Position numbers and translations under genes: made by a program. A model generated the notes under the pieces. The model was given only the letters and a program-made list of their open reading frames with translations, was not told the origin of the DNA and did no database searches. From an uncultured Candidatus Saccharibacteria bacterium (GTDB taxonomy: Bacteria; Patescibacteriota; UBA1384; DTJR01): a DNA stretch of 64,000 nt. The stretch lies in the NCBI GenBank assembly GCA_964580065.1, contig CAZOJE010000003.1, forward strand, positions 18,441 through 82,440, read 5' to 3'. Below, piece after piece: positions 11,045 to 62,086 of the stretch. Position 1 is the stretch's first letter. Each line of letters begins with the position of its first letter.

Positions 11045-11145
11045 ATATCAAACATTTGCTATCTCGGAGAGATTATAGAACAAAATCCCCCTTCTGCCAA
11101 GAGAAAAGACTATTTTTCAAAAAATTTTGTACTATACTAATATAT

Positions 11146-11616
11146 ATGAAAAAAGACGAGAATAATTACGACGTTTCAAAAATTCTCGCCGTGGTAATTT
11201 TGGCTATCGTTGGTATTTCTGGCTGTTTTTTTGTTCTTTGGCAAATGTCAAGCCAAAAATCTGCCGCTAACGCCAAAAACACTCAAGCCGTTGCCACCCA
11301 AAAAGAAATTGATGAACTCAATCAAAAAATCGACGAACTCAACGCTTCACTGCAAGAGGTGCAAAACAGCAATTCCGACGATAGCTCTGGCACAGTCAAG
11401 GGTGATTCAACCTCGTCCGTCACCGACAAAATAAACATTAATACGGCCTCTTTGAGCGATCTCGATAAATTAGACGGAATCGGCCCCACCTACGCCCAGA
11501 GAATTATTGATTATCGTTCATCTAACAACGGATTTAAATCAATTGAGGAAATTAAAAACGTTAAAGGCATTGGCGATAAAACTTTTGAAAAACTCAAAAA
11601 TCAAATCACTATCTAG
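11146..11616 (+). CDS. comEA: Competence protein ComEA (helix-hairpin-helix DNA-binding)
   Basis: Internal Met start (MKKDENNY...). N-terminal TM helix. C-terminal ININTASLSDLDKLDGIGPTYAQRIIDYR...GIGDKTFEKLK tandem HhH motifs. Confidence 0.7.
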   Translation: MKKDENNYDVSKILAVVILAIVGISGCFFVLWQMSSQKSAANAKNTQAVATQKEIDELNQKIDELNASLQEVQNSNSDDSSGTVKGDSTSSVTDKININTASLSDLDKLDGIGPTYAQRIIDYRSSNNGFKSIEEIKNVKGIGDKTFEKLKNQITI

Positions 11617-13668
11617 CTATTCTAAATGATCCGTTTCAAGAACTTTTTCAACCTTTTTTGACATTGCGCTAAATTCGTCTAACCGCCCAATATATTTTTC
11701 CGCTGCCGCTTGAGCACTTTTTAAAAGCGCTGTATCTTCCAGCCAAAGAGGGTTAATTTCGCTATAGCCCGATTGTACTAACCCCAAAATTGCCCCCGGC
11801 CCGCGCAACTGAAGGTCAATCTTTGATAGCTCAAATCCGTCCGTTGAGCCAACAAAGGCTTTGAGCCGTTTTTTTGTTTTTTCATTTTGAATGTTTTCCG
11901 AAAAAATAAAACAATACGATTGCAAATCATTACGACCGACGCGTCCCCTGAATTGATGCAATTGCGCCAGCCCAAATTTGTCCGCGTCCTCAATTATCAT
12001 CACCGTCGCGTTTGGAATATCCACTCCAACTTCAACGACACTCGTTGAAACAAGCACATCAATTTCACCCTTTTTCATTCGAGACATGATAGCCTCTTTT
12101 TCCGACGCCTTCATTTTGCCATGCAATTTTTCTATTCTCGTCGTCCCCAAAATCGTCTTAGCCAAATCGGCAAATTCCGTTTCAACCGCTTTTCGATCAT
12201 CGAGATCAAAAAGCGAATCGGAATTTTTCTGTTCAATAAAAGGACAGATCACAAACGCCTGCTGGCCAGCTTTTATTAAATTGAAAATAAATTTATAAGC
12301 GTCGGCTCTTTTTTGTTCGCTGATCAAATAAGTTTTAACCGGCAATCGGCCCGCTGGCTTCGAACGGATTATTGAAATATCCAAATTACCGAACAAAATG
12401 TGAGCCAAGGTACGAGGAATCGGCGTAGCCGATAGCGACAAAAAGTGGGGCGCTATATTTCCCGAAGCTAATTTTGCTCTTTGTTCAACGCCAAAACGAT
12501 GCTGTTCGTCCACCACCACCAAACCGACCTTTTCCAAGATAATGTCTTTTTGCAAAAGGGCGTGTGTACCGATTATTAAATCTGCATCTTCCAATTTTTC
12601 GGCTTGTTTTTTCATTTCTTTTTTCGTTGTAGCCGTTACAAGAGAAATTTTTATTTTCGTATCAGCTAAAAAACGGCGGGCTGTTTCATAATGTTGTTGA
12701 GATAGAATTTCGGTTGGCGCCAGCCAAACCGCTTTTAAACCATTAGAGGCAACCGCCACCGTGCCGGCAAGCGCCACCACAGTTTTGCCCGAACCAACAT
12801 CACCTTCAATGAGGCGGCTTGCCGGCACCTCTTTTTGCAAATCAGTTTTAATTTCGTCGATAACATTTTTTTGATCCTGTGTCAGTTTAAACGGTAATTT
12901 TGCAATAAAATCGTCCATTGCATCAAAATTTTTGATTTTATAAGCTGGCGACTGCTGATTTTTTTGTCTTTGCAAAAGATTGGCCAGCATAAAAATAAAA
13001 AGCTCACCAAAAATCAGCCGTCTTTTAGAAAGCCAAAATTCTTCCAACAAGCGCGGAAAATGCATCATTCGAATAGCTTGATTAATTTCGGGCAAATTAT
13101 TTTTTTTCAAAACTTCCGCCGGAATAAATTCCTCAACTTCATAATTCATTTTAAGAGCATTTTTCACCGCCCGAGAGATAATTTTTTGCGACAATTTGCC
13201 TGTTAGGGGATAAACCGGAATGATCGCGGCCGCGGCGTGCATTTCGGGGTTCGAAATAAAAATTTGTTTTTTTATAAAATCAAATTCTACTTGGCCGTAA
13301 AAAATCAGCTCCTGAGCGACTTTTAAAGATTGTTTTAAAAAAGGTTGGTTAAACCAGCGCGCCGGTATTTCACCAGTTTCATCAGACAAAGTTGCTTCAG
13401 TTAACCAAATTCTTTTACGCGCTGTTTTTGTTTGATTGACTTTTTCGATTGTCGCTTTAACCGCGACTTTTTCACCCCGCATACGCGGCAGATTCTTAAT
13501 TTCGGTCGTTTTGGTTAAATCGATAAAAGTACGCGGTTTGTATAAAAGCAAATCTTCGATCGTCACAACAGAGCATCGGGCAAAATCAGCTGCTAAGCGT
13601 TCGCCAATATAGGGGATTGCGCTAACCCGAGGCGGCCTATTTGTTTTTTCCGACATGGGCGAGAACAT
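11617..13668 (-). CDS. recG: ATP-dependent DNA helicase RecG
   Basis: 683 aa with helicase motifs (GDVGSGKT, DEQHRFG) and RecG wedge-domain architecture. Confidence 0.9.
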   Translation of the reverse strand: MFSPMSEKTNRPPRVSAIPYIGERLAADFARCSVVTIEDLLLYKPRTFIDLTKTTEIKNLPRMRGEKVAVKATIEKVNQTKTARKRIWLTEATLSDETGEIPARWFNQPFLKQSLKVAQELIFYGQVEFDFIKKQIFISNPEMHAAAAIIPVYPLTGKLSQKIISRAVKNALKMNYEVEEFIPAEVLKKNNLPEINQAIRMMHFPRLLEEFWLSKRRLIFGELFIFMLANLLQRQKNQQSPAYKIKNFDAMDDFIAKLPFKLTQDQKNVIDEIKTDLQKEVPASRLIEGDVGSGKTVVALAGTVAVASNGLKAVWLAPTEILSQQHYETARRFLADTKIKISLVTATTKKEMKKQAEKLEDADLIIGTHALLQKDIILEKVGLVVVDEQHRFGVEQRAKLASGNIAPHFLSLSATPIPRTLAHILFGNLDISIIRSKPAGRLPVKTYLISEQKRADAYKFIFNLIKAGQQAFVICPFIEQKNSDSLFDLDDRKAVETEFADLAKTILGTTRIEKLHGKMKASEKEAIMSRMKKGEIDVLVSTSVVEVGVDIPNATVMIIEDADKFGLAQLHQFRGRVGRNDLQSYCFIFSENIQNEKTKKRLKAFVGSTDGFELSKIDLQLRGPGAILGLVQSGYSEINPLWLEDTALLKSAQAAAEKYIGRLDEFSAMSKKVEKVLETDHLE

Positions 13669-14203
13669 ATTTTATCTTTTCCTGAACTGTTTTTTTGTCT
13701 TCAGGAATTTTACTTAAATAGGGGATAATTTCTTGGCGTTTATAACCCAAACTGGTTAACGCTTCAAGCGTTTCGTCGTTTTCTCCCATTAAATCAGCTA
13801 TATCGCCAGACGCCTTGCCTTTAAGCTCAACAATAATTTTGGCCGCAACCTTTGTTCCTACGCCGCTAACTGCCCGAAAAGCATTTGAATCAGATTTGGC
13901 TAAAGCGGTCGTAAATTTTTCTTGGCCTAGTGTACCGATAATCGCCAAAGCCACCTTCGGACCAACCCCTGAAACCCCCAAAAGAAGTTCAAAAATTTTT
14001 AGCTCGCTAGGGGAGTCGAATCCGTAAAGATCGTCAGTGTCTTCTCTTATAAGATGATAGATAAAAAACTCCGCCTCGTCGCCCTCTTTTTTTCGCTCAA
14101 TTAAATCGGGTTTGGCGAAAACCTTATACCCCACTGCGCTATCCCCTACGGCCACATAATTGGCCCCTTTATAAATAATTTTTCCCTTAAGATAAGCTAT
14201 CAT
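13637..14203 (-). CDS. ruvA: Holliday junction DNA helicase RuvA
   Basis: 188 aa with MIAYLKGKI... N-terminus and GVSGVGPKVALAI HhH motifs. Confidence 0.85.
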   Translation of the reverse strand: MIAYLKGKIIYKGANYVAVGDSAVGYKVFAKPDLIERKKEGDEAEFFIYHLIREDTDDLYGFDSPSELKIFELLLGVSGVGPKVALAIIGTLGQEKFTTALAKSDSNAFRAVSGVGTKVAAKIIVELKGKASGDIADLMGENDETLEALTSLGYKRQEIIPYLSKIPEDKKTVQEKIKYVLAHVGKNK

Positions 14204-15080
14204 GTCTTGTCCTGCTAGTTGCGCGCATTTTTAAATTGTTTATGGCATTATATCCGGCAATCGCCGCTCCCACTGCCGGACCGATTTTGCCCAATGGCGA
14301 TTTTTTGACCTTTACACCGAGCTCGATAAAAGACGGCTCAAAGGCCGAAAAATTTTCTAAAATGTCGCCCGAAAGAATAAAAATCTCCGGATCAAAAAGC
14401 ATTTTTATATTAACCAAACCCGTCAACAAACTTTCTTTAAGATCTTTTAAAATCTGCTTTGAAACCAGTTCGCTTTGCGGATTTTCTTTGAGAATTTGAT
14501 AAATCGATCGGCCGGTTAGCGCTTCAATCCCCTCACCCGAAACCAACGCACCAAAACTGCCCGCGCTGTGCCGCTTTTCGCGAGTAATATCTAAAACCAT
14601 TTCGCGGATATTGCCCGAAGCATTGTGCTTGCCGCGATAAACTTTGCCGCCAACCACAAAGGCCGCCCCAACATCGCGGCCAATTTCCACAAAAGCAATG
14701 TCGCCAAATTCTTTGGCCGCTCCGAATGCCCTTTCCGCCAAGATCGAGCAAAATTCTCGTCTTTGGATAAAAATCGGTAAATTTAGCTTACGCGAAAGCA
14801 TTTGATAAATATCCGCCCCTTCGAGTTCTTTGATCGGCGAGCTGACAACTTTTTTACCGCTAGAATCAAAAACCGCCGGCAAAGCCACACCCACCGCTAT
14901 CGCTTGATGGAAATTTGGCAATGAAGTAACAGTTTTTTCGATTTTAGAAATAATTGATTCGCGTCCCAGTTTGGGAATATAAGGACGAGCCAGTTTTTCA
15001 ACCGTGGCAAAATTCCCGTCCAAAAGAACGGCTTCGATCCCGCCAAGCCCATAGCTGACACCCGCAATATATTTGTTCAT
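14187..15080 (-). CDS. ROK family sugar kinase/regulator
   Basis: 297 aa with ROK-type N-terminal ATPase motifs (GVSYGLGGIEAVLLD). Confidence 0.65.
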   Translation of the reverse strand: MNKYIAGVSYGLGGIEAVLLDGNFATVEKLARPYIPKLGRESIISKIEKTVTSLPNFHQAIAVGVALPAVFDSSGKKVVSSPIKELEGADIYQMLSRKLNLPIFIQRREFCSILAERAFGAAKEFGDIAFVEIGRDVGAAFVVGGKVYRGKHNASGNIREMVLDITREKRHSAGSFGALVSGEGIEALTGRSIYQILKENPQSELVSKQILKDLKESLLTGLVNIKMLFDPEIFILSGDILENFSAFEPSFIELGVKVKKSPLGKIGPAVGAAIAGYNAINNLKMRATSRTRHDSLS

Positions 15081-24388: not shown

Positions 24389-24490
24389 ATTCCTCCAATC
24401 TATAGAAGTCTTGAATCGCAAGCGATACAGGTTTACATTATAATAAATTAGGCCTTGTTTTCAAGCAGGCAGATCCTTGACAAGGAGGTT

Positions 24491-24841
24491 ATGTCTGTGG
24501 GTGCTCATGCGAGCCGTCACGATCCTCACGTCATTGTCGCAGTCGAGAATCTAGACCCCCTTTTAGTCGAGGAAGCCGCTTCCCTCGCCTGTGCTCGCGT
24601 ACACTTTTTACGCTCTGACCAGCTTGGCAACAAGCCCTACCCTGCCAACGCTGTCATTGCCGATCACGAAGTGTCCCGTTGGGTCGCCCAGCAGATTACT
24701 AATGGGCTGATTCCACCGGAAACAACCGTTTTCTGCGTTCATCCGGAAAGTGAGTACGAACCCCAAACTGACCCCAAAGGAGTACACCATTGCAGTCTTC
24801 GCGATCTCGTCAACGTGATTCAGAGCGCACACTTCGCTTAG
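24491..24841 (+). CDS. Hypothetical protein encoded on high-GC island 1
   Basis: ATG at 24491 preceded by AAGGAGG. 117 aa. Local GC is much higher than the flanks. No recognisable family. Confidence 0.4.
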   Translation: MSVGAHASRHDPHVIVAVENLDPLLVEEAASLACARVHFLRSDQLGNKPYPANAVIADHEVSRWVAQQITNGLIPPETTVFCVHPESEYEPQTDPKGVHHCSLRDLVNVIQSAHFA

Positions 24842-24927
24842 GGGCTTGACTTCTAGGCGGAAAAAGCGCACAATTAGCTGTTTTGTCGCACCTTGCCATA
24901 AAAAAAACCAGGAAGGAGGTGGATGGC

Positions 24928-25389
24928 ATGTCCATCCACCAGCAGCCCAGTCGGACGACGGTTCTGGCGGCCGCGATCTTGGTCGCGGCCGTGATCTTCG
25001 CATTGTTCCTCCTGCTTGCGCCTCCGGCGCACGCGGGAAGGATCGCTGTCTGGATCGGCGGGCCGCCGCCGTGCCCGCCGCCGTTCCAGGCACATTGCCC
25101 ACCCCCGTGGGCAATGTGTTCACCTCCACCCCCTTACTGTCCACCCCCGCCGCCGTGCGCCCCGCCATGGGCGGGCCCGGGGCCCTTCGGCCCCATCGAA
25201 ATGCGGCCCGGCCCGGCGCCTTGGGGCTTTCCGGCCCAAGGCGGTGTCGACTACTACCACCGCGACGAGACGTACTCCCGTCGCGGTGGGCTCACGGTCG
25301 ACGAGACTATTCGTTTCCGCGATCAGTTCGGAAACTCGGTCCGGATCAACCGATCCGGACCCGTTCCGCCGCCTCCCCGCTTCTGGTAG
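24928..25389 (+). CDS. Secreted Pro/Cys-rich hypothetical protein on high-GC island 1
   Basis: ATG at 24928 preceded by GGAGGTG. Signal-anchor helix plus AHA-G cleavage-like site, then PPPCPPP/CPPPPPC repeats. A terminator hairpin follows at 25487. Confidence 0.45.
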   Translation: MSIHQQPSRTTVLAAAILVAAVIFALFLLLAPPAHAGRIAVWIGGPPPCPPPFQAHCPPPWAMCSPPPPYCPPPPPCAPPWAGPGPFGPIEMRPGPAPWGFPAQGGVDYYHRDETYSRRGGLTVDETIRFRDQFGNSVRINRSGPVPPPPRFW

Positions 25390-25486
25390 CTCAACCGCCA
25401 GAAGCAAAATGTCCTAAAAGCGGCCAGTCAGTTGGTACCGCCCCTCACCCTCCCTCGCGGGCCAACTGGCTGATCACCGCTTTCAG

Positions 25487-25524
25487 GGCCCCGGCAGTCT
25501 ATTTGTCGGGGCCTTTTTCTTTTT
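25487..25524 (+). terminator. Rho-independent terminator (GGCCCCG...CGGGGCC + T-run) closing the high-GC island operon
   Basis: Stem GGCCCCG/CGGGGCC followed by TTTTTCTTTTT. Confidence 0.5.
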
Positions 25525-25532
25525 ATCAGCTA

Positions 25533-26414
25533 TTAGTTCAACGCCGCCCAGCCGTCGCTTTTTAGCCCAAACCTGACCGTGCCCATTTCATCCGTTCGAA
25601 AAATTTTAATATTTATGGAGGTCAAATATTCCAGCACTGTTTTGGCCGGATGGCCGTACTTATTGTTGGCGCCAACCGAAATAATCGCCTTTTTCGCTCC
25701 CGTCGCCTGAATAAATTGCTTGTTCAAACCATTCGACGAGCCGTGATGCGATATTTTAACAACGTCACTTTTTAGCTCCGTTTTTAACTTTTTTACTACA
25801 ATTTCACCCTGTATTTCGGTTTCGGCGTCACCCAACAGTATTACATCACCCTCTGGAGTATCAAATTTGGCCACAATCGAACTATCATTCGAAGACAAGC
25901 TAGTCAAGTCGCCTTTGGGCGGAGAATAAATATCAATATTATCAAAGTCATTGATCTTAATTGTTGTCCCGTCCGAGACAATTTCATGGGGAATTTTTTT
26001 ATCACTAATCTTCTTGGCCACCGTTTGGTAAATTTTCGAATCTGCCTGCTTGTCCGAGCTATAAAGATTTTTAATCGAAAAAGAGTCCAAAACATAATTG
26101 AATCCGCCAATATGGTCGTAATCCGGATGAGTCATAAAGGCATATTCAATCGTTCGATCGTTAGAAGGCATATATTTTTCTAGCCCTTCTAAGACAGAAT
26201 TATCCGGCCCGGCATCTACCAAAATTTGCACCGAACCGGGGAGCGAAAAAAGCGTCGCGTCGCCCTGCCCCACGTCCAAAAAAAATGCTTTGGCCAGAAT
26301 TTGTGAATCAGGGTTGGCCTGAACAGAAGAAAAATAATGAAACCAAATGCCAAAACAAATAATAGTCAGAAGAATAATTGTTGTTTCAAATGTTTTCTGC
26401 CCATTTTTTTTCAT
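25533..26414 (-). CDS. comEC: ComEC/Rec2 C-terminal metallo-beta-lactamase domain (separate ORF)
   Basis: FFLDVGQGDATLF, HPDYDHIGG and ISHHGSSNG MBL motifs. The start overlaps an A8 homopolymer. It fuses in-frame with the upstream ORF if one A is removed. Confidence 0.7.
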   Translation of the reverse strand: MKKNGQKTFETTIILLTIICFGIWFHYFSSVQANPDSQILAKAFFLDVGQGDATLFSLPGSVQILVDAGPDNSVLEGLEKYMPSNDRTIEYAFMTHPDYDHIGGFNYVLDSFSIKNLYSSDKQADSKIYQTVAKKISDKKIPHEIVSDGTTIKINDFDNIDIYSPPKGDLTSLSSNDSSIVAKFDTPEGDVILLGDAETEIQGEIVVKKLKTELKSDVVKISHHGSSNGLNKQFIQATGAKKAIISVGANNKYGHPAKTVLEYLTSINIKIFRTDEMGTVRFGLKSDGWAALN

Positions 26415-27834
26415 AGAAAAATTTTATGAAATATGCCGTCGCTATCAGCAAAATATAATAGACAATTGCCCATGGCCACGTTAAAGCGCCAGCGTTAAAT
26501 TGGCCAAAAGGTAAAAGGGCAAAAAGGTCTATAACCAACTTAACATAACCGACAACTAATCCCAAAAAAACATTCAGCACAAGGGCTAGTTTAATGCTCA
26601 CAAGTCCAAAGGCCAACGCCAAAGCCGCCAGAAGCATTCCTAAAGGTAAAACAGGCAAAACGAATATATTAGAAATAAAGCCAATCAAGGTGAGGGAGCC
26701 AAAATGATACAAAATGATGCCAAAACAAAGAACTTGGGCCGAAAGAGTTTGAGCCAGCATCGCTAAAAGCTCTTTAAGGTATTTATTTTTTGTTTTGGCC
26801 AATACCGATAAGCTTTCCGATAAAACCAGCCCAACCGTGGCGGCAAAGCTAAGTTGAAAACCAATATCGTAAACAACAAATGGATTGACCAATAGCATAA
26901 TCATTGCTGCTAAAACTAAATCGTTTATCAGCAACGCTCTTCGCCCAATCATTTTTCCGATAATTACGACAAGGCCCATAATTGCCGCGCGCGTCACCGA
27001 ACTAGCGCCGCCGGTAAGAAAAAAGAATGCGACCAGAATAAACACACTGGCGTAAAAAGCAAATTTTTTGCCCGCCGCCGCGCGCAAAGCGCCAAACATC
27101 ACCACTAATATTATTGAAATATTGAACCCTGACACTGCCGTTATATGAGTCAAGCCAGTTTTTTTTATTTTTTCAGCAAAGGCATCTGAAAAATTTGGGT
27201 CGCCTAAAATTAGCCCCTTAGCCAGTTGCCCCTTGTCTCCCGGCCAAATCACGGCAAAAACGCGATCAACACGGAGTCTAATGTTGTTAAAAAAATTCTC
27301 GATCGACGGGCGGTGGCCAACAATTTCAAATTGAGGGTTTTTAATAACCTGCACCGTTTTATAGTTAGCCAGATAATATCCAGCCATTTGCGGTTCGGCT
27401 TTGATTATTTGTTTGCTTTCAAGACAAATTTTGAGCTGATCGCCAGAACGAATTTCATTAAAATTTTCCGTTTGCGCCACCAAAGCGCCATAGTTCGATT
27501 TCAGCTCGACCTTAGCCGCGGTATCTTTCTGTTTTATTTTGCCCACCGCAAAAATATAACAGCCGTCAGCAAAATCAGTTCGAGTAAAATTGCCAAAAAC
27601 GCTCGCATAACAGAATCCGCTGAAAAACGTTAATATCAAAAAAATTGGCAATGCCTTTTTCCAAAAAGCAAAAATAATCGCCGCGGCTAAGACCGCCAGC
27701 AAAAGAGCGAAAATTATTTTGAGATCGATTTGACTAACAAGCAAAACCGCTACCGCCATTCCCGTGCAACTAGCGGACATAAAAAGAAGCGGCCTGTTGA
27801 TAAATGGAAGCTTTTTTGACACAGAGCTCCTCAT
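26386..27834 (-). CDS. comEC: ComEC/Rec2 N-terminal part (DUF4131 + competence channel domain)
   Basis: Polytopic membrane protein with ...GLTHITAVSGFNISIILVV... competence-domain motif. It ends 29 nt inside the start of the MBL ORF. Confidence 0.7.
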   Translation of the reverse strand: MRSSVSKKLPFINRPLLFMSASCTGMAVAVLLVSQIDLKIIFALLLAVLAAAIIFAFWKKALPIFLILTFFSGFCYASVFGNFTRTDFADGCYIFAVGKIKQKDTAAKVELKSNYGALVAQTENFNEIRSGDQLKICLESKQIIKAEPQMAGYYLANYKTVQVIKNPQFEIVGHRPSIENFFNNIRLRVDRVFAVIWPGDKGQLAKGLILGDPNFSDAFAEKIKKTGLTHITAVSGFNISIILVVMFGALRAAAGKKFAFYASVFILVAFFFLTGGASSVTRAAIMGLVVIIGKMIGRRALLINDLVLAAMIMLLVNPFVVYDIGFQLSFAATVGLVLSESLSVLAKTKNKYLKELLAMLAQTLSAQVLCFGIILYHFGSLTLIGFISNIFVLPVLPLGMLLAALALAFGLVSIKLALVLNVFLGLVVGYVKLVIDLFALLPFGQFNAGALTWPWAIVYYILLIATAYFIKFFYEKKWAENI

Positions 27835-37131: not shown

Positions 37132-37176
37132 GGGCCAGTAGCTCAGTGGTAGAGCAGGAGCCTTTTAAGCTTCGTG
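37132..37176 (+). pseudogene. 5' fragment of tRNA-Lys (45 nt: acceptor through anticodon arm to variable loop), duplicate of the intact gene
   Basis: Identical to nt 1-45 of the downstream tRNA-Lys. It lacks the T-arm and 3' acceptor strand. Confidence 0.6.
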
Positions 37177-37309
37177 CAAGGGCTTGAGCGGGTAGAACGC
37201 TCAAGTGCCGGACCGCGACGGCGGGAGGCGGGGTCGCGCAAAAATTCAGCAGAATTTTATGCGTGACCGATCCCCAAGGAGATCGAACATTATAAATATA
37301 GGTTAGTTT

Positions 37310-37384
37310 GGGCCAGTAGCTCAGTGGTAGAGCAGGAGCCTTTTAAGCTTCGTGTCGAGGGTTCGATCCCCTCCTGGCCCTCCA
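37310..37384 (+). tRNA. tRNA-Lys (anticodon TTT), CCA encoded
   Basis: GGGCCAG/CTGGCCC acceptor, D-arm TAGCTCAGTGGTAGAGCA, anticodon loop CTTTTAA, T-arm GAGGGTTCGATCCCCTC, CCA. Confidence 0.85.
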
Positions 37385-37512
37385 AGCAAGTACCCCACGC
37401 AAGTGGGGTTTTTGCTTGGAGTGATTTTGGCGCGGGGATCGAAGGCCGCAGGGCTGACTGAGTCCGAGGCCCGCCCCGAAGAAATTTCAGCAGAAATTTA
37501 CTGAGGGGGAGC

Positions 37513-37529
37513 CCCTCCTGGCCCTCCAA
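37513..37529 (+). repeat. Duplicate of the tRNA-Lys 3' end (CCCCTCCTGGCCCTCCA), ~130 bp downstream of the intact gene
   Basis: Exact 17-nt match to the T-stem 3' strand + acceptor + CCA of tRNA-Lys. Confidence 0.55.
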
Positions 37530-37643
37530 ACCTATTTTGCGCAAGCAAAGAGGTTTGTCCTCCGTAGTCCGCCAACTGGCGGACGAAGGATGGACTACCC
37601 GTAACCCATAACTTTACGCGACGGGTTGCGAAATAATAAGTGT

Positions 37644-54644: not shown

Positions 54645-55556
54645 ATGTCCAAATCGATTTTACGCCAAGCCCTAGTAAAAGAAATAGCACCGGAGTTAAA
54701 ATTATCTGGAGCAAAAACCAGATCTCTTGTTTTGGCCGTCGAAAATATTGTTGCTAATGAGATTAAAGACAAGGGGCGCGTACAAATAACTCGTTTCGGC
54801 ACTTTTTACAAACGAACCCGTCCCAGCCGTGTTATCAAAACTGTTCGCGGCCAAAAAAGCAAACTCTTGCTCGAAAAAGAAGCCCTTAAATTCATCGCCT
54901 CCAAGGATTTTAAAGACGTTTTATTAAATAAAACGAGAAAAAAACCGAAGCCAAAAAAATTGTCCGAGACATCTTCAGCGAATGAATCAACCTTTATCCC
55001 GATAAAAATAAACGGCCAAATTGTTAAAAAAATTTCTGAAAAAGCGGCGCAACAGATAGAAGAAAATATTGAAAAAATTAAAACCTTAAAGCCGACTCAA
55101 AAAATCAAATTGCCGCCTTTAGCCATTCACACTCGAGTAGAAAAAGACAAAATCGTTTCTTCGATTAAAAAAAGGATTGCCGCCGCCGCGCGCGCCAATG
55201 CCAAAAGCACCCCCCTTAAAAAAGAGTTATCAGCGGCCGAAAAAATCTTCAGCCGATTCGTCCGGCAGACTGCTCGGTTAGATAAAAAGTGCATGGACTT
55301 TTCGATCCCCTGCCAAAAAGCCAATCCGATGGAAAAAACTACTATTTTTGCCGGTCGCCCCAGAATAATCATCGGGCACATTCCCACTGTCAATTTGCAA
55401 AACTATTTATTTGACGTCGCCGACTTGCACGAATCCAGTCTGCCTCAAGTAAGGTTTGTCGCCATCAAAAAAGACGGTTATGATAAAAATATCATGCTCG
55501 AAATTCACAGTCTTCCAGTCAATAACGGTTTAAGTGTTCACATTAATTTGCGATGA
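54645..55556 (+). CDS. HU/IHF-family DNA-binding domain protein with ~200-aa Lys-rich C-terminal extension
   Basis: N-terminal ~90 aa matches the HU fold (RFGTF..R..R.GRNP.T arm pattern RFGTFYKRTRPSRV). The remainder is a K-rich tail of unknown domain. Confidence 0.55.
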   Translation: MSKSILRQALVKEIAPELKLSGAKTRSLVLAVENIVANEIKDKGRVQITRFGTFYKRTRPSRVIKTVRGQKSKLLLEKEALKFIASKDFKDVLLNKTRKKPKPKKLSETSSANESTFIPIKINGQIVKKISEKAAQQIEENIEKIKTLKPTQKIKLPPLAIHTRVEKDKIVSSIKKRIAAAARANAKSTPLKKELSAAEKIFSRFVRQTARLDKKCMDFSIPCQKANPMEKTTIFAGRPRIIIGHIPTVNLQNYLFDVADLHESSLPQVRFVAIKKDGYDKNIMLEIHSLPVNNGLSVHINLR

Positions 55557-55942
55557 GTAAAAAATCGATTTTATATACTTTCCTTGGCGCCTTAGCAGTC
55601 TTTTTTCTGATTACGGCCTTTGCGGCTGCTGTATATTATTCGCGTCCTTCGGCCGACAGCTTTGCCGCCACCGTTCCTTTGCCGCCAAAATGGGCGCCCG
55701 AAGCCACTCCGCCAACACCGGCCGAGCCAATCGTTTTAGGCGATTCGACCGATGACGGTATTGTCAACTCAATGGATATTAACGCTCTTTTGGCTCGCTG
55801 GAAAACAGTTGACGCCGATTACGATATTGCCTCCAGCGGCGACAAAAACTTGATTAACGGTGAGGACTTAACTCAAATTTTTAAATATTGGCATTGCCAA
55901 GAACTCCTAACAGATAAAGATTGTCCTTATAAAACGGATTAA
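55553..55942 (+). CDS. Small membrane-anchored dockerin-like (Ca-binding repeat) domain protein
   Basis: N-terminal TM. DSTDDGIVNSMDINALLARW and SGDKNLINGEDLTQIFKYW resemble the duplicated dockerin type I Ca-binding segments. Confidence 0.5.
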   Translation: MSKKSILYTFLGALAVFFLITAFAAAVYYSRPSADSFAATVPLPPKWAPEATPPTPAEPIVLGDSTDDGIVNSMDINALLARWKTVDADYDIASSGDKNLINGEDLTQIFKYWHCQELLTDKDCPYKTD

Positions 55943-56034
55943 GTTTTAGCCAATTGCCCTTTTTGAAATTAAAATTTTTGGTTTTTTTTCAAAACGTGTA
56001 CACCGGCTTTAGTCGGTGGTTTTGTCTTATAAAA

Positions 56035-56445
56035 CGGAAAAGGCCACTTCTTTCCGTTCAGCGAATGCTGATTGGATGAAGTGGCCTTGGTGATGCCCGG
56101 GATATCCGAGGCGATGATGGCGGGAGGCCCAAGAGGGCCTCCCGATGACCGACCGTGATTTCCCCGCCATAAGGCGGGGTAAACTGTGAGAGGACTCTGG
56201 AGGCAATCAGAGTCCCCTCACCAACGGCTCGACATGCCCGCTGCGCTTCCGCCACATTGCTGGGGTGGCGGAAAACTATGCGAGGGTCCTGTTTCTTGGA
56301 CCGTTAACCTGCACATGCAGGACCCTCGCCGCCCTCCGTAAGGGAACTGTCCCGGTAGCAGAGGGCAAAAAAGGAGATTATGATAGCAGGTTGAACCCGA
56401 TGAACTGGGCCCAACCCTTCGGCGGCACAACTCAATAAGCTGGCC
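56035..56445 (+). ncRNA. rnpB: Probable RNase P RNA (bacterial type)
   Basis: GC-rich, structured, ORF-free. GATGCCCGGGATATCC resembles the P4 5' strand (GGAAAGUCCGGGCUCC). CCAAGAGGGCC resembles GUAAGAGCGCACC. GGGGTAAACTGTGAG resembles the GGUAAAC(U)CCACC module. AGCAGGTTGAACCCGATGAA resembles the P4 3' strand (ACAGAACCCGGCUUA). A terminator hairpin follows. Confidence 0.45.
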
Positions 56446-56473
56446 GTTAGCCCTTCAAAGGGCTAACCTTTTG
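56446..56473 (+). terminator. Hairpin GTTAGCCCTT-caa-AGGGCTAAC + CTTTT
   Basis: Perfect 9-10 bp stem followed by a T-rich tract immediately after the RNase P RNA candidate. Confidence 0.5.
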
Positions 56474-56590
56474 CGAGGATCTTCCCGACCCTCGCAGGTG
56501 TCCTAACAACCGGTTTTTTTGCGAGGATTCCGAATCCTCGCCCGTCTGCTATCTGTCTTTTGACTTCGCTAGGCCTCCCACCCAGCGAAG
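56473..56590. repeat. Cluster of three related hairpins with GCGAGG...CCTCGC arms
   Basis: GCGAGGATCTTCCCGACCCTCGC, GCGAGGATTCCGAATCCTCGC and CTTCGCTAGGCCTCCCACCCAGCGAAG lie in the dnaE 3' intergenic region. Confidence 0.4.
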
Positions 56591-56711
56591 CTCAAGTTTT
56601 CAAATTACTTAGCTAAATTGTATGACAATATAATAAAAATGCAATATCTGTCAAGACCCAAACCCTAATTAAAAATAACGCCGCACCTTAGCCAATACTT
56701 TTGGCAAAAAA

Positions 56712-60338: not shown

Positions 60339-60409
60339 AAAATATAGTTTTTTATGGAGTCGCGCAACTGTTGCGCGAATCCCATCGGCTTGATATTAAC
60401 GTATCATCT

Positions 60410-60458
60410 TCGTTTATAAACGAAAAGGGCCTCGGTTGCGTTGTCGCACCCGAGGCCC
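60410..60458 (-). terminator. Rho-independent terminator for the high-GC island 2 gene (GGGCCTCGG...CCGAGGCCC + TTTTCGTTTAT on minus strand)
   Basis: 9-bp GC stem at 60427-60458 followed, on the minus strand, by a T-rich tract. Confidence 0.5.
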
Positions 60459-60482
60459 CTAGTAGTTCTCCACTATCTTCAC

Positions 60483-61001
60483 TCATCGCCTTTCGGGGAA
60501 GCCGATGAGCTCGAGCGCCTCGACAACCGATCTGGCCCACGGCGCGCCCGCCTCTTCGGCGGCCCGCGCCAGCTCAAAGGCCTTCTCGAGGAGATAATCA
60601 ACGTCTTCCTCCCTCACCTCGAGGAGAAGCTTGGCCGTTACTTCTGGCTGGCCGTTCTTGTCTCTCGCGAGGCAATCAACGGCCCGAGTCACCTTATGGG
60701 GCTGCATGCTTTTCGGCAGGCGCTCGACAAGCTCCTCGAGCGCCTTCTCAATCAGCTTTGGGTCATCCGGCCCCACCAAGGCCCCGAAGTCGAGGCCGAC
60801 ACAAACCTTCGCTCCGACATAGATCCTCCCCTTATCAAAGATAGGGGTGGCCTGCACGGCGCTCCGGACAATGTAGGCCGCTCCCGCAAGGTCCATGTGC
60901 GGGAACATGCGGCGCAACCCTTGTGTCACGGTCGGCCAGACTACCCCCTCCATCGCTCTCTGAACGACCGCCTCAACGCCTGGGGAAAACCTCACAGTCA
61001 T
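60483..61001 (-). CDS. Hypothetical protein encoded on high-GC island 2
   Basis: ATG at 61001 preceded by GAAGGAG. 172 aa, Ala/Val/Glu-rich with high-GC codon usage. No family recognised. Confidence 0.45.
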   Translation of the reverse strand: MTVRFSPGVEAVVQRAMEGVVWPTVTQGLRRMFPHMDLAGAAYIVRSAVQATPIFDKGRIYVGAKVCVGLDFGALVGPDDPKLIEKALEELVERLPKSMQPHKVTRAVDCLARDKNGQPEVTAKLLLEVREEDVDYLLEKAFELARAAEEAGAPWARSVVEALELIGFPERR

Positions 61002-61080
61002 CACTCCTTCAAGGTTCTCTCCCGCTAAAGCGGGAGTTAATAGATGCAAAACGCATCGGCAAATAATATCTTTAAACCCC

Positions 61081-61109
61081 TTGAAAGTCAATCCTTTTTT
61101 TGCTAAAAT
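61081..61109 (+). promoter_or_regulatory. Sigma70-like promoter for rpmA-rplS (TTGAAA-17-TAAAAT)
   Basis: -35 at 61081-61086, 17-nt spacer, -10 at 61104-61109, ~75 nt upstream of the rpmA start. Confidence 0.45.
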
Positions 61110-61183
61110 GCTTTCTGTTGAGGTTGTTTAAAGGCAACTAAATGTTTGAGGTTGCATAACTAGATTTTTCAACCAAGGTTAAT

Positions 61184-61540
61184 ATGGCTCATACAAAAGC
61201 AAAAGGCACCACTAAATTAGGCCGCGATTCCGAATCAAAACGCTTAGGCGTTAAGATTTATGGTGGCTCGCCAATTAAGTGCGGTCAAATTATCATCCGC
61301 CAGCGCGGCACCGCTTATATGGCTGGAGAGGGAGTCAAAGTTGGCAAAGACGATACCCTTTATTCCCTGCGCGATGGCATCGTTGAATTTAAAAAAGTTC
61401 GCTACGTTAATTTTACCGGCAACACCAAAATCAAACAGAGAGTATCTGTTAACCAGCTAAAAACCAAAACCGCCACGGCTAAAGCTCCAGCCAAGCCAGT
61501 TAAAAAACCGGCTAAAGAAAAAGCGGCAACAAAGAAATAA
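61184..61540 (+). CDS. rpmA: 50S ribosomal protein L27 with Lys/Ala-rich C-terminal extension
   Basis: [24 protein letters not shown]... canonical L27. 118 aa versus ~85 typical. Confidence 0.85.
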
Positions 61541-61552
61541 ATTTAAAATATT

Positions 61553-62086
61553 ATGGATAGCACTATCACTCACGAACATTTTCAACTGAAAAAAAACGTC
61601 CCCAACATCAAACCGGGAGACCGTATTCGCGTTCATCAAAAAATCCACGAAGGCAACAAGGAAAGAATCCAGGTTTTTGAAGGTTTGGTCATCAAAACCC
61701 AACACGGTCGCGGTATCAACGGCACTTTCACGGTTCGCCGCATTGCTTCAGGTGTTGGCGTCGAAAAACTCTTCCCCTTACATTGCCCTGCTATTGTCAA
61801 AATTGAAAAAATTCGTTCCGCCAAAGTCAGGCGGGCCAAACTTTATTACGTTAGAGGTTTAATCGGCAAAGGCGCTAAGAGATTGAGCAAAGAAAAAGAA
61901 GACTTGGGCGTTTGGGAAGATGTCGTTGCTCCAGAAGAGCCGGCCGAAGAAGTTGAAACTGAAGAAACCGAAAATGAAGAAAGTGTTGAGCCGGAAGAAG
62001 AAACCGAACCTGTCGAAAAACCTGCTAAAGCTGAAGATAAAACTGAAGACAAAAAAGACAAAGCTGAAAAGCCAGAAAAAAAATAA
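61553..62086 (+). CDS. rplS: 50S ribosomal protein L19 with long Glu/Lys-rich C-terminal extension
   Basis: [27 protein letters not shown] is the L19 core. ~60 aa acidic/basic tail. Confidence 0.85.

Follow-up and report, generated by a model that had tools for sequence, protein, structure and literature searches.

An orphan gene of high GC content in the dnaE-rpmA interval of a Saccharibacteria genome and its possible origins

How did a compact gene made of strongly GC-rich DNA come to lie between dnaE and rpmA in a CPR genome whose backbone is about 42% GC? We addressed this question in a 64-kb window (the whole stretch of 64,000 nucleotides that was analyzed), by recalculating the composition of the locus, examining its signals and its coding capacity, and comparing the interval between the two core genes with the equivalent interval in related genomes. 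The locus is referred to below as the island, or as island 2 where it is set beside a second GC-rich locus of the window, island 1; coordinates are collected in the table.

Composition and anatomy of the unit

Log-odds segmentation of the window gave a maximal-scoring GC-rich segment (60427-60985, GC 0.626) with a score of 47.9, compared with a maximum of 16.6 in 100 block-shuffles. In 200-nt windows, GC is 0.60 to 0.63 across 60400-60999 and 0.36 to 0.47 on either side, and in a 580-nt window the island stands at z = 4.25 above the mean of the 64-kb window. The GC3 of its open reading frame (ORF) is 0.75, against a median of 0.415 (median absolute deviation [MAD], 0.028) over 68 ORFs. Composition therefore deviates from that of the host genome, as in a horizontally acquired islet, and the GC excess claimed in the first-pass annotation, which had described a GC-rich segment of about 0.7 kb starting at 60339 in a backbone of about 40% GC, withstood recalculation. 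Its size did not: because the 88 nt at 60339-60426 are AT-rich backbone (GC 0.36), that left edge was too generous and the island measures about 0.61 kb, with the whole GC-rich unit, including the hairpin of its 5′ untranslated region (5′-UTR), extending to about 61036.

The minus-strand ORF 61001..60483 runs for 172 aa from an ATG at 61001 to a TGA at 60485..60483 and encodes an A/V/E/L/R-rich product of about 19 kDa (pI 5.5) with no transmembrane or hydrophobic segment. The Shine-Dalgarno (SD) sequence GAAGGAG lies 2 nt before this ATG and 8 nt before an in-frame GTG at 60995 (codon 3). Because NCBI and Logan both call the gene as 170 aa, the product starting at the GTG is likelier than the 172-aa form; of the Ala/Val/Glu-rich, 172-aa protein originally described, the reading frame, the composition, and the SD were borne out, and the start codon is probably a different one. 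Only 9 of the 64 window ORFs of at least 100 aa carry an SD-core match of at least 6 nt, and the strong SD of the island is therefore atypical for this genome.

A GC-rich stem-loop with a U-tract, as expected of a Rho-independent terminator, follows the stop codon; its stem (60459..60426, minus strand) starts 23 nt past the stop and leads into UUUUCGUUUAU, and for the 91-nt region the folding energy is -37 kcal/mol (z = -5.6). Overlapping the U-tract is a perfect palindrome of 16 nt, TTCGTTTATAAACGAA (60411-60426). In a second allele of the island the stem is intact, with the sole change in the loop. Upstream of the gene, the hairpin CTCCCGC-TAAA-GCGGGAG is present at the 5′ border, and the minus strand of 61002-61065 folds at -20.2 kcal/mol (z = -2.9). 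In an Rfam scan of the island and the sequence around it, the sole match was to ctRNA_p42d, below threshold and located on the terminator hairpin. The anatomy first proposed for the locus, a single-gene unit with its own SD, 5′ border hairpin, and terminator between dnaE and rpmA, is thus correct.

The sole good promoter-like site on the minus strand, TTGACT-17-TATTAT, lies in the AT-rich backbone and not in the island, where it overlaps back to back with the promoter-like site of rpmA. Each of these promoter-like sites matches 10 of 12 positions, and the consensus scan found four sites where 0.8 were expected. We infer that the minus-strand candidate drives the island gene, and it is probably the ancestral promoter on the dnaE side. 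A weak candidate promoter for dnaE, TTTATA-16-TAATAT (60420..60393), matches 8 of 12 positions and falls below the scan threshold. The dnaE leader also holds a palindrome of 13+13 nt, GGAGTCGCGCAAC-T-GTTGCGCGAATCC (60356-60382; 27 nt), a possible operator or leader hairpin, and the rpmA leader (61118-61159) holds a 14-nt direct repeat, TTGAGGTTGTTTAA / TTGAGGTTGCATAA. In relatives, the rpmA leader carries a small hairpin and T-run (AGTCC-ATT-GGACT TAACTTTTTT; L092, 4969-4991), possibly a ribosomal-protein leader or attenuator.

Table. Positions of the features discussed, in the window unless a related contig is named
Feature	Position	Strand	Basis or remark
GC-rich segment	60427..60985		62.6% GC, maximal-scoring segment
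Orphan protein gene	60483..61001	-	Translation, codon-position GC, NCBI and Logan gene calls
Shine-Dalgarno GAAGGAG	61004..61010	-	Sequence
5′-UTR hairpin CUCCCGC-UUUA-GCGGGAG	61019..61036	-	Fold
Small second hairpin GAUGC-N5-GCAUC	61043-61057	-	Fold
Promoter-like site TTGACT-17-TATTAT	61063..61091	-	Consensus scan
rpmA promoter-like site TTGAAA-17-TAAAAT	61081-61109	+	Consensus scan
Intrinsic terminator, 10+4 bp GC-rich stem then UUUUCGUUUAU	60416..60459	-	Fold, inverted repeat
AT-rich spacer, terminator to dnaE ATG (60338)	60339..60426	-	Sequence, GC 0.36
Island 1	24440-25530		GC-rich segment 24499-25513, score 80
Island 1 ORFs	24491..24841 (116 aa), 24928..25389 (153 aa)	+	
205-211 aa slot family	L092 4165-4791, L094 1392-2024, L175 8001-8618		
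Non-coding block of ~85 nt	L092 4792-4930, L093 2940-3060, L094 2025-2160, L175 7850-8000	-	

Coding evidence, strain variation, and homologue searches

GC at the three codon positions of the island ORF is.70/.42/.75, a pattern that is classic for genes from GC-rich DNA, while backbone genes have a GC3 of about 0.41. A frame might nevertheless be open merely since GC-rich DNA lacks stops, in which case the island would be a structured RNA or a decaying remnant; an antisense frame of 195 aa is indeed open in both alleles, a clearly non-coding structured GC-rich element lies 4 kb away (56030-56600), and there is no homologue to show conservation at the protein level. We consider such a non-protein origin of the frame highly improbable. 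The island ORF has strong three-base periodicity, which is missing from the non-coding element at 56 kb (.61/.53/.545); the SD, start codon, and terminator are all properly placed on the minus strand, and the antisense frame is without start and termination signals; and the amino acid composition is ordinary and globular. The two alleles differ at 31 nt and 16 aa, all in codons 97 to 161 and with no indel or stop, and these substitutions fall mostly at position 3 of the minus-frame codons (7/11/13 for the three positions). The corresponding dN/dS of about 0.62, which comes from only 31 differences, is weak evidence of constraint. The island ORF is best read as a genuine, lineage-restricted protein-coding gene.

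Sharp compositional edges, along with two Logan contigs (L084, L085) that stop within the island, are what an assembly or binning chimera, with foreign GC-rich DNA joined to a CPR contig, might leave behind. Both junctions are, however, spanned in Logan assemblies (SRR9674389, SRR9878565), JGI assemblies (3300010344, 3300009767), ENA assemblies (ERZ795049, ERZ27257404), and a 130-kb NCBI contig, with SRR33364246 spanning the rpmA-side junction only. Since both junctions are crossed in assemblies made independently from seven or more samples, the island is not a chimera; the same junctions recur across four assembly pipelines and in the second allele, which is 5% divergent, and this explanation is effectively refuted.

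All sampled strains carry the island, and no strain of the same species with an empty site was found among them. Compared with L087, whose genome is otherwise 99 to 100% identical, a tract inside the island ORF (60500-60800) is 83 to 94% identical and a second tract (61300-61800), covering the C-terminal tail of L27 and the N terminus of L19, is 74 to 87% identical. These mosaic tracts show active homologous recombination in and beside the island, and the mosaic tract within it implies that a more divergent lineage also carries the island.

Searches with the protein returned only itself and its closest kin. A word-indexed search of 5.8 billion clusters found its own 90% cluster, with four members from the same species; HMMER run in full against 1.84 billion representatives recovered the island protein alone; and there was no match in Pfam, NCBIfam, PHROG, or PDB sequences, nor in phages, plasmids, or IMG/VR. 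These collections thus hold no identifiable donor or homologue, and with none in relatives the proposal of a compositionally foreign gene survives this check as well. A match to DUF2795 was rejected (14.1 bits against a gathering threshold of 25; E = 0.044; only 20 residues). A single-sequence AF2 model (pLDDT 59.7) is alpha/beta, with its elements in the order H H E E H H E E E H H, and Foldseek found nothing under E = 1e-3 in PDB and BFVD. The model recalls the alpha/beta sandwich of phage tail-terminator and tail-completion proteins such as lambda gpU, at low model confidence, but its top match, like others that rank high, is a generic alpha/beta sandwich (collagenase subdomain, S6), and with no PHROG match and no nearby phage genes we rejected membership in that family. 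The product is predicted to be a small soluble acidic alpha/beta protein; our guess is that it serves as an accessory protein of conflict or interaction rather than in housekeeping.

The dnaE-rpmA slot in relatives and the origin of the island gene

We compared the interval between dnaE and rpmA (here, the slot) across related genomes, among which the best identity to the N-terminal part of DnaE was 58% for species representatives and 69% in metagenomes. In nine distant lineages (DnaE, 51 to 54%) the two genes diverge from a gap of 61 to 176 bp of AT-rich DNA, and in L097 (DnaE, 62%) the gap is 354 bp and again AT-rich. The gap is 845 bp in this species, where it holds the island gene, and ranges from 592 to about 3,500 bp in L093, L095, L096, L092, L094/ERZ1426829, and L175, where it holds one to five GC-rich genes without Pfam matches; the DnaE identity of 66 to 69% in this closer clade refers to L093, L095, and L092, the identity table being drawn up without L096, L094/ERZ1426829, and L175. 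Related genomes therefore lack the island at this site: 10 of them have only a short AT-rich gap, closer ones contain other genes, and the insertion proposed in the first-pass annotation fits this distribution.

The slot genes of the closer clade have a GC of 0.52 to 0.60, compared with 0.40 to 0.49 for their core neighbors, and all 16 of the 16 slot genes, from 7 lineages, are co-oriented with dnaE. A hairpin and T-run precedes dnaE wherever the dnaE-proximal end of the slot is present (L092, L093, L095, and L096); the terminator scan itself called this dnaE-side signal only in L092 and L095, and called none in L175. None of the slot genes is related to the island protein, and most have no relation to each other; when 34 GC-rich ORFs taken from 163 related loci were compared all against all, no common families emerged. 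The single common slot family is a protein of 205 to 211 aa, encoded by the first gene next to rpmA in L092, L094, and L175, with four clusters database-wide. Three slot proteins or families of relatives had no match in phages, plasmids, or IMG/VR.

Because the same slot in relatives holds other, unrelated GC-rich orphan genes, the reading we favor on balance is that the island is an accessory gene, inserted as a compact promoter-less unit into a slot that acts as a clade-specific hotspot. Ancestrally, dnaE and rpmA would have been separated by a short, AT-rich stretch with divergent promoters. The inserted unit would have brought a 5′-UTR hairpin, a strong SD, an ORF, and an intrinsic terminator but no promoter of its own, and transcription of the island may start from the backbone site at 61091..61063 that overlaps the rpmA promoter back to back. 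The island transcript would end at the terminator of the unit, which would insulate dnaE, and dnaE may then be served by the weak secondary promoter at 60420..60393 or by read-through. In the closer clade, unrelated GC-rich genes without Pfam matches would build up in the slot, all pointing the same way as dnaE. The unit probably entered the hotspot through recombination and not through a site-specific recombinase. Neither an integrase, a transposase, nor a tRNA target was found near the island, whose neighbors are dnaE on one side and rpmA-rplS-UPF0102-gltX on the other, with the nearest tRNA 23 kb off. Direct and inverted repeats at the borders are at chance level (the best flank repeat, 12/15, was equaled in 42 of 300 shuffles), in agreement with the earlier reading of borders devoid of integrase and repeats; the usual signatures of mobility are thus lacking. 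An origin of the island DNA outside the lineage is most likely, the probable donor being a pool of mobile or accessory genes of which little has been sampled. As no donor, mobility gene, target duplication, or island-less strain was found, the case for insertion is made by comparison between genera only.

Whether GC-richness by itself indicates transfer can be judged from the 205-211 aa family. Its copies are saturated at synonymous sites (pS, 0.66 to 0.79; pN, 0.30 to 0.52) and share 23 to 54% amino acid identity, yet every copy keeps a GC3 of 0.63 to 0.72, compared with 0.37 to 0.45 in the adjacent rpmA. Because the family keeps its GC3 despite saturated pS, GC-richness alone neither dates nor proves a transfer, and in this clade the GC-richness of slot genes is maintained or repeatedly re-imported and not simply the trace of a recent transfer that has yet to ameliorate. 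We also observed a non-coding block of about 85 nt (TACTTGACAAGCATYCGCTAAACGTATTGAATA...CCTGTCAAACGGCCT...TGCCCCATTTT) that is conserved in four lineages with saturated synonymous sites. It lies between the first slot gene and the rpmA promoter, includes two opposed TTGACA boxes, and has no Rfam match. Conservation of this upstream block in four lineages argues for vertical residence of the 205-211 aa family.

These properties raise an alternative in which the island gene is not foreign at all but is a resident, very fast-evolving positional orthologue of the 205-211 aa family, with its GC upheld by a locus-specific process (GC-biased gene conversion at a recombination hotspot, or selection). 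The slot and orientation are the same, the family evolves fast at the protein level while remaining GC-rich through saturation, AF2 models of the island protein and of the family (209 aa) have a similar order of predicted secondary-structure elements, every sampled strain has the island, and recombination tracts lie in and beside it. Sequence comparison speaks against orthology: hhalign gives the island protein and the family a probability of 0.2 to 0.3%, shuffled Smith-Waterman alignments give z-scores of -0.2 to 1.1, and the family HMM ranks the island protein below shuffled copies. Further, both AF2 models are of low confidence (pLDDT 59.7 and 45.8), the conserved Cys motif of the family is missing from the island protein, and the ~85-nt upstream block of the relatives is absent or diverged here. 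To our knowledge, no bacterial process produces a 30-point GC3 excess over one gene. We therefore hold a resident gene to be unlikely, though it is an alternative that deserves serious attention.

The promoter-less, co-oriented, and mutually unrelated ORFs at one fixed site also resemble integron cassettes, and capture by an integron-like or other site-specific system, as in a CALIN-type array (clusters of attC sites lacking integron-integrases) without a nearby integrase, would place such ORFs one way downstream of a resident promoter. The backbone promoter-like site and the shared orientation of 16/16 genes agree with that arrangement, as does a hairpin at the 3′ end of the unit. This hairpin is, however, a plain GC stem followed by a U-tract, that is, an ordinary intrinsic terminator; inspection found no attC at the 3′ end of the cassette and no R''/R' boxes (RYYYAAC / GTTRRRY). 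Some neighboring slot genes overlap as in operons, with no recombination sites between them, no IntI or other tyrosine recombinase adjoins the site, and flank repeats are no better than chance. Cassette capture of this kind is accordingly very unlikely.

Small islets in horizontal-transfer hotspots flanked by core genes have been described generally for bacteria. The island, which we still favor reading as an inserted accessory gene, shares with them its atypical composition, its orphan cargo, a fixed slot between core genes, a cargo that varies by lineage, and the dispensability of mobility genes. It differs in that the cargo is GC-richer than the core, where acquired genes are usually AT-richer, in that all cargo of the slot is co-oriented with one flank, and in that one older slot family stays GC-rich through saturated divergence. 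For Patescibacteria, both genomic islands and horizontal transfer have been documented (PMC12455944), and taken alone the island is one more orphan-gene islet of this kind.

The pattern across genomes is unusual, on preliminary evidence, in its fixed slots, single orientation, and persistent GC-richness. Several related genera fill one slot with different GC-rich orphans in one orientation, with a terminator before dnaE where that end is readable, and a literature search turned up no work dealing specifically with GC-rich orphans at hotspots in CPR. A broader and more speculative proposal, which we rate as rather improbable, is that the rpmA-dnaE gap belongs to a set of fixed slots (the others being 3′ of dnaE, at rplS/UPF0102, and after a GT4 gene) that house a distinct compartment of persistently GC-rich, very fast-evolving orphans, fed by an unrecognized, recombinase-free cassette capture from a GC-rich extrachromosomal or host-derived pool, or kept in composition by a locus-specific process. 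Island 2 would then belong to a "second genome," separate in composition, within an ultra-small symbiont. Should persistent GC-richness extend across whole genomes, the GC content of a gene would say little about when it was transferred in these organisms, and in CPR symbionts the accessory genes would make up a compartment with a composition of its own.

Other GC-rich stretches

Island 1 directly adjoins the comEC genes (25533..27834). Both of its ORFs have strong SDs, and it ends in a long hairpin and T-run terminator. The 153-aa protein, which has a transmembrane-like hydrophobic N terminus and a Pro/Cys-rich region of the PPPCPPP type, is confined to a four-member cluster from the same species, and a search of phages, plasmids, and IMG/VR found no match for an island 1 protein. 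The first-pass annotation had taken the likeness of islands 1 and 2 as a sign of a common donor or mechanism. The two are alike in architecture only (strong SD, GC-rich ORF, and hairpin plus T-run terminator): their proteins are unrelated, a search for shared border motifs gave nothing above chance, motifs shared among islands 1 and 2 and the 56-kb element are chance-level short matches, and a tetranucleotide comparison of the two islands gave no informative k-mer signature. A common mechanism is possible, and a common donor is unsupported.

The GC-rich element at 56030-56600 (GC, 0.56 to 0.62) lies between an ORF at 55553..55942 and the dnaE stop codon; the segment 56083-56587 scores 27, which, like the score of island 1, is well above the shuffle maximum of 16.6. 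No ORF in it exceeds 70 aa, codon periodicity is missing, and the element is made up of about a dozen near-perfect hairpins, with folding z-scores of about -10 on both strands. No Rfam family matched (best, RNaseP-T, E = 0.62), and no similar sequence was found in 175 related loci; the element is a candidate for a novel structured RNA or hairpin-repeat element. An ORF-poor, structured stretch of GC 0.65 (11080-11720; z = -4.1) occupies the equivalent place 3′ of dnaE in L095 (DnaE, 69% identical) and has no sequence similarity to the window element, and L175 is likewise GC-rich 3′ of dnaE (13300-14760). Within L175 and L093, further GC-rich orphans occur at fixed slots, namely, at rplS/UPF0102, after the GT4 gene, and 3′ of dnaE.

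Elsewhere in the window, a segment of GC 0.566 at 37132-37601 scores 17.3, just over the shuffle maximum, and surrounds tRNA-Lys (37310-37384), which leaves about 400 nt of the segment unaccounted for by the tRNA. Finally, the dnaE of L095 (5989-10731) encodes 1,580 aa rather than 1,208, with an insertion between the residues CLSGDT and VVHN that, judging from the translated sequence, looks like an intein.
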